Shown: one piece after another, positions 15,745-19,922 of the stretch
Position numbering within the stretch: the first letter of the stretch is position 1
Layout: each line of letters opens with the position of its first letter
Assembly: GCA_031835245.2 (NCBI GenBank)
Contig: JAVKOQ020000073.1
Span: 185,178-205,177, forward strand
Origin: Balamuthia mandrillaris
Taxonomy: Eukaryota
Direction of reading: 5' to 3'
DNA length: 20,000 nucleotides
Position numbers and translations under genes: made by a program
The notes under the pieces: model-generated
The model's input: the letters and a program-made list of their open reading frames with translations, nothing else
Told to the model about the DNA's origin: nothing
Database searches by the model: none

Positions 15745-18700
15745 GCGGGTACTCTTAAACCTAAGCATGCCTCTTTGTGTAACTTAAAGAAATATTGAAA
15801 AAAACTAAGTCAATAAAAAATCTACTTATTCTTTTCTACTGTTTTAAATGTTAATTTCTATCAAGTTTGTTAAAATATTTTTATAAATATTAAGAAAAAA
15901 ATGTTGAAGATAAAGAAATAACAACAACATCAAAAAAAACTTAACATCATAAAAACATTTCAACATAAAACATAGAAAATAAAAAACAAAGAAAATTAAA
16001 TATTAAAATGTTGACATATAGCTTCTTCACTACCATACTTAAGCAATAAGTTTCTCCATTTGTCTTTGCAATCCACATTAGTCCTGATTTGTTGAGGCAA
16101 AGTTGATGCAATCTCAACCCAACTAGCTTTTTTATGAAGATGCAAATGAATCAACTCTTTTGTTTCTTCATCACTCCAAGGTTGACGTTGACGATGATTG
16201 GATGTTTTGATGCGAGTTCTTGGAGTAGAAGTTTGAAGTTGAAAGGGTCCATTTTTTCGTTTCTTGTAAGGTACTTGCTTCAAAGGTGAATGGTTTTGTA
16301 GAAGAGGTAATGCAGGTTCTAGGAATGCTTGTAAAAGCTCATCCAAAAGTTGAAGGTTACCTGCCAATAAGCTTGCAATATGTCTTCTTCCAACAATCGT
16401 TTTGATGTGATTAAGAGGTGGTGATACATCATTTCTTTGCTTAAAAGCTTCTATTTCTTGTCTCATCTCTTCTTCAACTTCATCTTCATGATTGTCCACC
16501 CATGCATGTAAACACTTTTGCCACAAAGACTTACATAATTTAGCATGATCTGACTTGGATAAATCAGTTCTGCTTTGGAATCTAATTAACAAAAAAAAAA
16601 CTAAAGTTAATAAGTGTGTACAAATAATAATAATAATAATAATAATAAAAGTAAAAAATGTTTTAACCTTTCCATAACTTTGTCATAAAAAGCTTCATAA
16701 TTAGTTTGTAAAGACCATTTTGAAATCAAAGGTTCTTTCAAATTATGAAATACTTCTTTGGTAACTAAAGTTGGATCCATTAAACTAGTTGAAGATTCAC
16801 CTAAATAAAAAGAAATAAAGAGTGAAATTATTTTTTTTTCAATCTATCTGAAAAAAAACCAAAAATAACCAATACCTGAGGAAGAAACTAATCTGTTAGC
16901 AACCATGGATTTAATAGCAGTGCTTTTCACATAGCGTTGTTGAGAACGTCCATAAGGCTGCCAACCAGCAATAAAAGCAGTTGATTCCAATACTGCATTT
17001 CTTTGTTGGCTATCATTTAATCCTTGCTTGATTAAAGCAGTGCATAAAAAACCAGCTCTCAACGAATGAAAAGTAAAAAGGCCTGAAGGATAGTTAGCCA
17101 AGGTAGCACATTTTCTCAGTCTGGCATTCAAAGCATCAGGACTCAGTCCCCACAAAGAAGAGGCTTGTTGTTGAGAAGAAAGATTCCAAGTAGAAAACTC
17201 TTCTAAGGATAAAGAATGAGTTTCTTGAAGATGAAGATTAAGCCAGTAGATGAAGTCTCCAGTAGGGTTGATGTGAGGAGGAGGACGAATGTAGCCTTCC
17301 AAAGTAATCATGTGATTCCAATCTCCTGGTTTTCCTTTGGTAACTTGATGAAGAAGGGAAAAGAAGCAGAGGCTATGAGGATCAGAAGGATTTTGGATGA
17401 TGAAGTTCTGAAAATGTCCAAGAAGAATGTTGGAAGCTGTGATGGCTCTAGCTCCAGTGCTTACGCTATGCAACCAACAACTGGCATCTCTTGCTTTTTT
17501 TCGTTTACCATCCGGAATCATCGTTATGATTTGAATCACATCATCTTTCAAACAAGCATCTCTCATTCTTCCTGATCTTGTACAAGATGGAGCTCGTTGT
17601 TTGCACTTCTTTGCCGCCAAATTTACAGTGTCTCGTATCTTTTGTGGAACTTGCTCTCCTCCCGTTTCTTCCGTATGAATACGATACAAACTTGCCACAA
17701 TAACATCTTTTGCTGAAGTCAAAGCATATCCAACAGTCATCACCAACCATTCCATAAATGCTCCAAGATGATGTTTGTTTGCATCCAATGGAAAAGGTTT
17801 GAGTTTTAGATTATCACAAAATGCTGTCCAAATTAATCTGGCCCAAGCATGTTTTCGCAAAGTTGAATCACTCCATCTTGAAGAAGTTGCAATCAAGTGT
17901 TCCCATCTTTCTAAAGTTAAAGAAGGAAGCATACGAATAGCTCGAGACACTCTTGCTGATGGAGTAGTAGTTGGTAGTACTTGTGATGATTGTTGTTGTG
18001 GTTGTACTTTCTCTTTTCTTTTTGTTTTATCTGATTCATTTTCTTCTTCACTTTCTGAAGAAGAAGAACAATTTACCAAATCAATAAAAAGAGAAGAAGT
18101 AGTTGTTGACGTTGTTGAAGTTGTTTTTAACTTGTTTAAAAAAGAAGAAGAAGAAGATGAAGAAGAAGAAGAAAAATAAAAATCATCATCTTTTGTTTCT
18201 CTTTCTTTCTCTTTTTCTTCTTCATCTGATGTAGCAAAAAAACTATCATTATCATTATCATTATCAAAATCATCATTTTCATCAAAAAAAATAGGAATGA
18301 TTGAAGACGAAGTAGAAGAAGTAGAAGATGAAGAAGAAGATGAAGAAGAAGATATTGATGATGATAAAGTAGAAGTTGAAGTTGTAGAAGAAGTAAATGA
18401 AGATGAAATTTTCATTTTTTGTTTTTGTTGAGTATGAAAGGACCTTTGAAGCAAAATAAAAATAAATAAGAAATAATAATTTAAAAAAGATACTATGAAA
18501 ATAAAAAAAACAAACCTTTTACATTTTTTACTACAAAAAAGTTGATTTGATTGAGGACAAGGAATCAAATCTAAACAAAGTATACAATGTACTTTTTTTG
18601 CAGTTGGAGATAATATTGTTGACATAGAATATTGAAAAATAAAATAATTCACTTAAAAAGACTTTTAAAAATTAAAAAACAATCAAAAAGGAAGTGGGAA

Positions 18701-19853
18701 AATAAAGTGGAAAAGGTGTGAACTGTTTGTGAAAAAATAAAAAAATAAACTTTAATTGTAAAAAAAATGTTTGAGGAGTTAAATTTTAGATTTTTGTAGA
18801 CATGTCGACAAGAAATTAATGGAAAACCATAATAGAAAGGCGCTATCGAAGGATATCTATTTAAAAGGGCGAAAAAAACATTATATTTTTCGAAAGCTCC
18901 AGGGAAAAGAAGGGGAGATTAACCTAAGTCTTTGACTTACGTTGTTACATATGAACCAATAATTGAAAGCACTTAGTACTGGTGAAAGAACAGTGCTGAA
19001 GGTTGTTGGAACAGGGGCACTGCCTTGCCATATCTTTCCGTTAAGACAAAATGGTTGCATGGGCCCACCCACTTCTCATTCCTACATTCACTTGAAGAAG
19101 GAGATAACCGTTGAAATATTGCATTGAGATTGGGTTCCTTTGGAAAGGTCTGTTGGCATAGAGAAGAATAGTCACTTAGAAGGACAACCTGACTCTGGAG
19201 TGGTTTTTTTTTAAAAGTTTTTTATTTTAAATATATTAGTTGACTTCACCAATTAACATAAAAAGGGACAAAGGATCAAAAAAAAATTATTTCAAAAAAA
19301 ATAAAAGAAAGAAAACAAGAAGAAGATTTTATTGTTGTGTTTTAGTTGAGTGTTATTTTTGTGATTGTTTAAACAAGAAGAAAAAGTAAAAAAGAAAATA
19401 TTATTTTTGTTAAAAAGTAAAAAAACAGAATTATCAAGTCTGTAGTTGATTTTCTAAGTTATTAAAAAAAAAAAGTGAATAAAAAAAGAAAAAAAAGAAA
19501 AAATATGAAAGAAGAAAAAAAAAAGACACTTTGCATTACACCAAAATGAACTCAGTACCTACTTCAATTTGACATTGAAAAAATTTAACTACTTCTAGCT
19601 AGTGATATCACTGTTTGCAAACCAAAAAGGAAGAAAAAGAGAAAAGAAAAAAAAGATTAAAAAGAACTAATCAAGTCTAAATCTTTTGTTTTTTGTTTTA
19701 TTATTTTGTTTTTTGTTTTTGTTTTTGTTTTTGAAGTATAGTAGAACCAATGTAATAATCATAACACACTTTTTGTTTAGTATTGGTTTGATTGAATTTG
19801 ACCAGTGGTTGAATAAGAAGAGATTTGAAGTGAGATCTAAGTGCTTTTGCTCA
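15745..19853 (-). mobile_element. Putative 4.1-kb Crypton-like tyrosine recombinase element embedded in telomeric repeats
   Basis: AT-rich unit with a single YR-Myb gene; flanked on both sides by same-orientation telomeric repeats sharing TAGGG at the junctions (15740-15744, 19854-19858); no RT, LTRs or clear TIRs seen. Confidence 0.7.
15996..18625 (-). CDS. Tyrosine recombinase with N-terminal Cys4 Zn-finger-like motif and C-terminal TRF-type (telobox) Myb domain (YR-B); predicted exons 18625-18516, 18443-16876, 16800-16668, 16581-15996
   Basis: CILC..FCSKKC; core-binding region WSDSTLRKHAWARLIWTAFC; catalytic STGARA (R), VTKGK (K), FTFHSLRAG (HxxR), IAGW (W), SQQRYV (Y). Introns 16875-16801 and 16667-16582 are GT-AG and join in frame through a stop-free 133-nt exon to PWSDEETKEL...WVEI...RTNVDCKDKWRNLL. 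Confidence 0.85.
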
Positions 19854-19922
19854 TAGGGTTAGGGTTAGTTGGGTTAGGGTTAGGGTTAGGGTTAGGTTAG
19901 GTTAGGGTTAGGGTTAGGGTTA

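Follow-up and report, generated by a model that had tools for sequence, protein, structure and literature searches.

Telomeric repeats bound a predicted mobile element at the right end of a 20,000-nucleotide stretch of Balamuthia mandrillaris DNA (contig JAVKOQ020000073.1 of assembly GCA_031835245.2, positions 185,178–205,177 of the forward strand; hereafter the window). The element carries a single gene, predicted to encode a tyrosine recombinase (YR) fused to a C-terminal Myb domain. Read along the plus strand, the order is an AT-rich flank, a short telomeric tract of one TTAGG and three TTAGGG units located by a repeat scan (15,722–15,744, plus strand), the element body of 4,109 bp (15,745–19,853, minus strand), and a long array of 25.7 copies with TTAGG variants (19,854–20,000, plus strand), which continues past the window end. 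The G strand of this outer array points toward the window end, as would be expected of a right chromosome end. The doubled hexamer TTAGGGTTAGGG is matched 18 times, against 0.04 expected. A preliminary description, made from the sequence alone, placed the unit inside TTAGGG repeats; there are indeed repeats on both sides, but the inner side holds only three to four of them.

The pentamer TAGGG is present at both element ends (15,740–15,744 at the inner end and 19,854–19,858 at the start of the outer array) and is the longest sequence common to the two junctions; beyond it, the repeat scan lists no terminal repeats for the element. The body has a GC content of 31%, against 42–48% on its left, and in two runs the DNA contig depth rises about tenfold on crossing the left boundary, near 15,770. 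In run X4, the depth goes from 72–259 to 1,035–2,430 over 15,771–18,065, a value that does not translate into copy number. The read comparison covers the element short of its last part and right junction, and reads in the left tract end at the repeat. Domain searches of the element gave no match to a reverse transcriptase (RT), and the longest frame upstream of the gene is 88 aa, which leaves no room for one. Rfam returned 15 matches, every one under the gathering score. Near the 3′ end of the element, an inverted telomere-like 11-mer (15,754–15,764, minus strand; 9 of 11 positions matched) is a candidate recombinase arm, not significant at 69 of 1000 shuffles. In the upstream part of the element, RNA-labelled reads are confined to a segment of ~312 bp (18,893–19,204), where reads of two RNA-labelled runs map to both strands and are joined head-to-tail; it may be a distinct satellite that the element has taken up.

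Gene structure

The gene is predicted to comprise four exons on the minus strand. Predicted exon 1 (18,516–18,625) contains the ATG, at 18,625, and a Cys knuckle, and is followed by a predicted in-frame GT..AG intron of 72 nt (18,444–18,515) that was absent from the preliminary description. Exon 2 (16,876–18,443) encodes a linker rich in Ser, Asp and Glu, the core-binding domain and the YR catalytic domain; intron 2 (75 nt, 16,801–16,875) and intron 3 (86 nt, 16,582–16,667), both GT..AG, enclose exon 3 of 133 nt (16,668–16,800); and exon 4 (15,996–16,581) encodes a helical domain, a basic linker, the Myb domain and the stop codon. The joints 16,876/16,800 and 16,668/16,581, proposed earlier together with the hidden 133-nt exon, hold up: they yield no internal stops, whereas moving one joint by 1 base introduces five. 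The joint at intron 2 matches 16 of 16 NCBI gene models and that at intron 3 matches 15 of 16, these models being predictions and not transcripts. With the three introns removed, the predicted product is 798 aa long. The predicted order within the protein is Cys knuckle, Cre-like YR, helical domain and single Myb. The knuckle has the motif CxxC...FCSxxC, is matched by the Pfam DUF2116 treble clef at an E value of 0.12 only, and has similar counterparts in 8 of 214 family proteins.

The tyrosine recombinase domain

The catalytic set is complete, as the preliminary description had it (R, K, HxxR, W, Y), with codons for Arg at 17,449, Lys at 17,338, His at 17,068, Arg at 17,059, Trp at 16,963 and Tyr at 16,933. 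Over 39 relatives, at ~22–50% identity, these residues are invariant or at least 90% conserved, the Trp and Tyr being columns of at least 90%. The window's own YR was undetected in Pfam and PDB sequence searches, and Pfam Phage_integrase appears, below its cut-off, in 8 of the 39 relatives. The fold was examined on an AlphaFold model of P0010, the gene model of another copy, built from a 39-row alignment (pLDDT 83.7). The structure prediction suggested earlier gave a Cre-like fold: the best Foldseek match of the model is Cre (E value 6e-6), and structural alignment of the same model by VIA has a Z score of 15.9 for Cre (rmsd 4.7, 290 residues aligned), 14.6 for XerH and 12.4 for lambda Int. 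The modelled core-binding and catalytic fold, together with the R-K-HxxR-(H/W)-Y residues, place the element protein among the tyrosine recombinases. A confident helical domain lies between the YR and the Myb in the P0010 model; its RNase III-like match (Z of at most 7.4) was taken as generic helical similarity.

The Myb domain

A single Myb repeat (16,044–16,187, minus strand) passes the Pfam cut-off (PF00249, E value 1.6e-8), with the recognition helix RTNVDCKDKWRNL at 16,085–16,047, so that the protein does end in a Myb domain, as the preliminary description had it. In TRF1, the base-reading residues are R380, V418, K421, D422 and R425, with R380 three residues before W383 (PMC5737604). By residue spacing and by alignment to zebrafish Terfa, the element Myb keeps this arrangement, its arm Arg sitting three residues ahead of the first Trp. 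The recognition half gives its top single-domain score with Terfa (15 bits, against 9–11 for c-Myb and Myb21), and 14 of its 19 matches are telomere proteins, some of them redundant with each other. Like TRF1, TRF2, Terfa and the plant TRP/TBP proteins, the element thus has a single Myb with an arm Arg and a V-x-x-K-D-x-x-R recognition helix. It differs from them by a Cys where Leu or Ile is usual before K-D and in that only its Myb is fused to a recombinase, and whole-domain scores do not set it apart from other Mybs. From these residues we infer, with good reason, that the element Myb would bind telomere repeats.

Copies in Balamuthia and their junctions

The YR region matches an NCBI protein of B. 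mandrillaris at 100% identity. The element is multi-copy in this species, with 17 gene models that cluster together at 90%; the 15 models listed sit on contigs whose lengths are all different. The 16 gene models examined fall into two subtypes, and DNA contigs ~90% identical show a second subtype as well; all catalytic motifs are present in 12 of the 16, and eight carry HxxR and the Myb in one chain. A third Balamuthia subfamily (P0003, P0020) is 52% identical.

The junctions of other copies were read from gene models that over-run the element 3′ end, not from DNA. Three of the 16 models do so (P0010, P0011 and P0012). P0011 and P0012, one of which has a variant C-terminal half, run on into PNPN, which is what CCCTAA repeats encode; P0010 stops exactly where the first CCC TAA would end it. 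The models show the entire inner tract, because the C strand has no GT donor. Fusion partners downstream are a Ras/RapGAP gene (P0011), a DEAD-box helicase (P0018) and a third-subfamily copy (P0001 and P0019); since these partners differ, the telomeric junction recurs at different loci. As judged from the gene models, the element is therefore interspersed in multiple copies with distinct flanks, as Cryptons are. In the models P0001 and P0019, a gene of this subfamily runs into the final exon of the 52%-identical one, so copies of the two would lie side by side and point the same way, in tandem clusters. The portion of the Balamuthia genome preprint available describes TTAGGG telomeres of ~90 repeats and more than 100 telomere-to-telomere contigs, states that transposons are not yet annotated, and does not mention 'recombinase' (10.1101/2025.02.25.640156).

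Relatives in other genomes

A search with the YR found 352 representatives at an E value of 1e-3 or below, and 94 at 1e-30. The named hosts are Balamuthia and Monocercomonoides exilis, the remainder being metagenomic and mostly on contigs of 2–8 kb; no family relative was found in viral_contigs. A Myb is present in 93 of the 103 members with at least 150 aa past the YR, by a family-built profile that makes this count partly circular, and Pfam independently detects one in 26 of 39 members. The motif K-D-x-x-R occurs in 36 of the 91 members that have both domains, and V-x-x-K-D-x-x-R in 26; the remaining Mybs have clearly different recognition helices. On a quick tree, the V-x-x-K-D-x-x-R label is clustered (14 changes, against 28 when shuffled). 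Two members, P0096 and P0192, have two tandem Myb repeats each.

Two relatives were examined as DNA. The contig L001, from another host, is circularly permuted with a 155-nt terminal repeat, which defines a unit of 3,412 bp; as far as the sequence goes, it may be either a circle or a tandem array, and contigs of its protein cluster are at most 3,442 bp long. The unit contains a single YR-Myb gene, whose YR-Myb part has no introns, and its spacer has a telomere-like tract matching at 16 of 18 positions within an inverted repeat (0 of 300 shuffles). This imperfect inverted repeat (L001 2,105–2,160), whose left arm is the telomere-like one, is a candidate recombination site. L002 (1–6,097) is an intron-bearing eukaryotic contig in a Bacteroidetes metagenome-assembled genome, probably a binning contaminant. 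It encodes a telobox helix; its best telomere-like match (11 of 12) lies ~80 nt past the stop codon and is reached in 2 of 100 shuffles. A 12-bp tandem repeat of 21.8 copies directly follows the L002 gene. An att-arm or end motif shared between the window and L001 or L002 was sought, and no match was significant (43 of 300 shuffles for the window and L001).

Among 165 non-Balamuthia representatives, the proteins contain 20 dipeptide triplets, four of which are of the TTAGGG type (LG, LG, NP and RV), these runs being read from the peptides. All four lie within 30 residues of a terminus, internal dipeptide runs of that type number 0 of 14, and shuffling the termini yields at most 1 in 1000 trials. 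The genes of three of these four members are truncated, as erosion and healing of chromosome ends would leave them.

Comparison with known elements

To our knowledge, almost every element specific for telomeres in a cellular genome is a retroelement; those with a YR are a retrotransposon and some giant endogenous viruses. The statements that follow draw on the portions of the cited papers that were available. Cryptons have terminal direct repeats of 4–6 bp and a circle as the model of their movement (Kojima & Jurka 2011, PMC3212892), and the active CryptonF-1_cRei recombines CACCG with CAYCG (PMC9977147). The Balamuthia element resembles them in its single intron-bearing YR gene, the lack of RT and of long terminal repeats, and an added C-terminal DNA-binding domain, which is GCR1_C in CryptonF; the 5-bp repeat at both ends may be a further likeness, as may movement by a circle. 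It differs in having a Myb in place of GCR1_C and a probable telomeric target. GCR1_C and DUF3504, which mark CryptonF and CryptonA, are absent from the 22 Pfam families matched at E values of 0.1 or below by 39 members, and 'Myb' has no occurrence in the main text of the Crypton paper (PMC3212892). The element thus appears Crypton-like in its workings, with a YR gene and no RT, and lacks the CryptonF and CryptonA marker domains.

TATE of Leishmania is a YR retrotransposon that sits in telomeric hexamers at GGG/TTA (PMC6681497). The register is the same if the terminal TAGGG is counted as part of our element, and tandem clusters are a further likeness, suggested here by two Balamuthia models in which a gene of one subfamily is fused to a second subfamily's copy downstream. 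However, TATE carries RT and RNase H with no Myb mentioned, whereas the Balamuthia element has a Myb and no RT; it accordingly lacks the RT and RNase H genes that define YR retrotransposons such as TATE, VIPER and DIRS. Endogenous nimaviruses insert into telomere repeats by a dedicated YR (PMC10871703), and they share with the element their DNA nature and the dedicated recombinase; concatemers or episomes are a further likeness, and their YRs have a zinc-binding domain. Compared by description only, the majani- and pemoniviruses are 278–401 kb long, target (TAACC)n and are described without mention of a Myb; in them the YR is part of a large viral genome, whereas the element unit measures 4.1 kb. 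TRAS, a non-long-terminal-repeat retrotransposon, combines telomere-repeat specificity with a Myb that is suggested to aid targeting (PMC5537684), but it is a retroelement with an APE endonuclease and RT and has no YR.

The preliminary description knew of no such element, and that claim was overstated, as telomere-repeat-specific YR elements are already known in TATE (PMC6681497) and the nimaviruses (PMC10871703). What appears to be new is a minimal element that lacks RT and has a telobox-type Myb fused to its recombinase, together with its family, which is probably undescribed. No minimal YR-Myb DNA element was found in the literature searched, a scope outside which lie subscription journals, Repbase and supplements; the available parts of PMC13236599, PMC3537659, PMC8767320 and PMC9528979 contain nothing on one.

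Proposed mechanism and alternative explanations

We regard it as very probable that the element is a mobile YR element, and probable that it prefers TTAGGG tracts. Our favoured reading, which we think likely, is a Crypton-like DNA transposon that inserts into TTAGGG repeats and whose Myb likely tethers the recombinase to the telomere; that the Myb is the targeting module seems about equally likely. By analogy with Cryptons, the recombinase would synapse both ends across the TAGGG core and excise a circle. The Myb would bind duplex TAGGG-type repeats, and a crossover between the circle core and a telomeric TAGGG would integrate the circle at GGG/TTA; the site would lie close to the array's inner edge, and no gene would be damaged there. 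The earlier proposal of a YR DNA element that targets telomeres by its own Myb stands in part: a single fused YR-Myb protein is predicted, and the element is multi-copy and RT-less. Telomeric repeats also occur at junctions of independent copies and in distant relatives, and the recognition helix is of the TRF type. The broader idea, which we hold tentatively and with somewhat less conviction than doubt, is a eukaryote-wide superfamily of minimal YR DNA transposons in which the Myb at the C terminus would act as an address label that can be exchanged, telobox Mybs directing insertion to TTAGGG repeats and other recognition helices to other repeats.

Several observations weigh against the favoured reading. 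Any insertion into a hexamer array would leave TAGGG at both ends. The inner tract is ~3 repeats long in all three readable copies (window, P0011 and P0012), a constancy not predicted by random insertion into an array of ~90 repeats, which points to the inner telomere edge, to short target tracts or to repeats carried by the element. L002, although its helix is of the telobox type, lacks a long TTAGGG array over its 6.1 kb, and in L001 and L002 the strand of the telomere-like tract relative to the gene is opposite to that in the window. The whole Myb scores c-Myb, Myb21 and Cdc5 as well as or better than TRF1, and GT-1 too is among the matches of the recognition half. Two RNA runs, of which 3% and 5% were read, gave 0 reads over the coding region, with a depth of 1–15 on both flanks; expression and the splice joints, for which an RNA check had been proposed, therefore stay predictions, and the RNA strain may differ.

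A rival idea is that the element carries short telomere-like ends, that the Myb mainly binds these arms, and that integration takes place at any short TTAGGG-like site, internal ones included. An inner tract of ~3 repeats, as seen in the window and in P0011 and P0012, would be accounted for, as would the telomere-like tract that forms one arm of the inverted repeat in L001, the short tract in L002 and the host genes close downstream of some copies. We nevertheless consider this unlikely: the window copy directly adjoins a long array, and neither the match of the window's end motif to that of L001 (43 of 300 shuffles) nor the inverted arm of the window (69 of 1000) is significant. Alternatively, the unit might be a passive subtelomeric repeat, comparable to yeast Y′, that is spread by host recombination in TTAGGG tracts with the recombinase as a passenger or relic. 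Such a repeat would have a terminal position, a short inner tract and near-identical copies, and could have a coding region without reads in the two RNA runs; yet the catalytic residues are kept in 39 relatives at ~22–50% identity and are all present in 12 of 16 copies, relatives whose hosts are unrelated likewise adjoin telomere-like repeats, and downstream neighbours differ between copies, all of which makes it less likely again.

The part played by the Myb might also be otherwise. It could be the core-binding and catalytic domains, or the TAGGG core, that determine telomere targeting, as seems to hold for nimaviral YRs, and the Myb would then have another job. The telomere-specific nimaviral YRs are described, in the text available, without mention of a Myb (PMC10871703). 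Within the family, K-D-x-x-R is kept in only 36 of 91 Mybs, and P0044, with a telomere-type peptide at its N-terminus, has a degenerate Myb. Against this, a deep clade of YRs conserves the arm Arg together with the V-x-x-K-D-x-x-R helix (26 of 91, clustered), and we judge Myb-independent targeting improbable. Least probable of all, and in our view barely credible, is a domesticated recombinase with which the host would trim or rearrange its telomeres. Predicted spliceosomal introns and a telomere-type Myb would suit such a gene, and repeated domestication of Cryptons is on record (PMC3212892, in the part available), but the many near-identical copies, three subfamilies, sharp ends and AT-rich body fit a selfish element, as does a relative that is circular or in tandem, and the sequencing runs of several strains contain only a small share of its sequence words.

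If the favoured reading is true, a 4-kb single-gene DNA transposon has borrowed the read-out of shelterin, a new route to a safe-haven niche. If the superfamily exists, it would amount to a natural modular site-specific integrase, and to a telomere colonist of microbial eukaryotes that is DNA-based rather than retroelement-based. Such an element would open the targeting question to direct tests, since its Myb forms a module of 50 residues that can be separated and that varies over more than 90 relatives. The protein might serve as a compact integrase for repeat-directed insertion, and the element bears on chromosome-end plasticity in Balamuthia, an amoeba whose transposons are reported, in the preprint text available, to be unannotated.

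Neighbourhood of the element

Directly at the inner telomeric tract begins an open frame without an ATG (14,774–15,721, minus strand), matched below cut-off by a Tet-like 2OG-Fe(II) oxygenase family (PF20515, E value 5e-4). The frame appears to have lost its 5′ end to the tract, as if a break had been healed there, and has a paralogue ~88% identical. A second YR-like catalytic C-terminus lies at 12,216–13,685 (plus strand), with Atlas phage-integrase-type clusters at 0.94, which is a lead only; it has one Balamuthia paralogue, P0218, and no similarity to the YR-Myb protein. Together, the YR-like and Tet-like frames may be a decayed YR/TET element. Farther left, a short TTAGGG tract of 2.5 copies (7,417–7,431) lies beside a 164-bp tandem repeat (7,449–7,891), with 7.8 copies of a 98-bp tandem repeat farther on (8,535–9,286); the repeats of 7,417–9,286 may record an older chromosome end or a subtelomeric junction. 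Ordinary host genes in the window include a PP2C phosphatase (374–2,312, plus strand) and a ferric reductase (2,492–5,023, minus strand).

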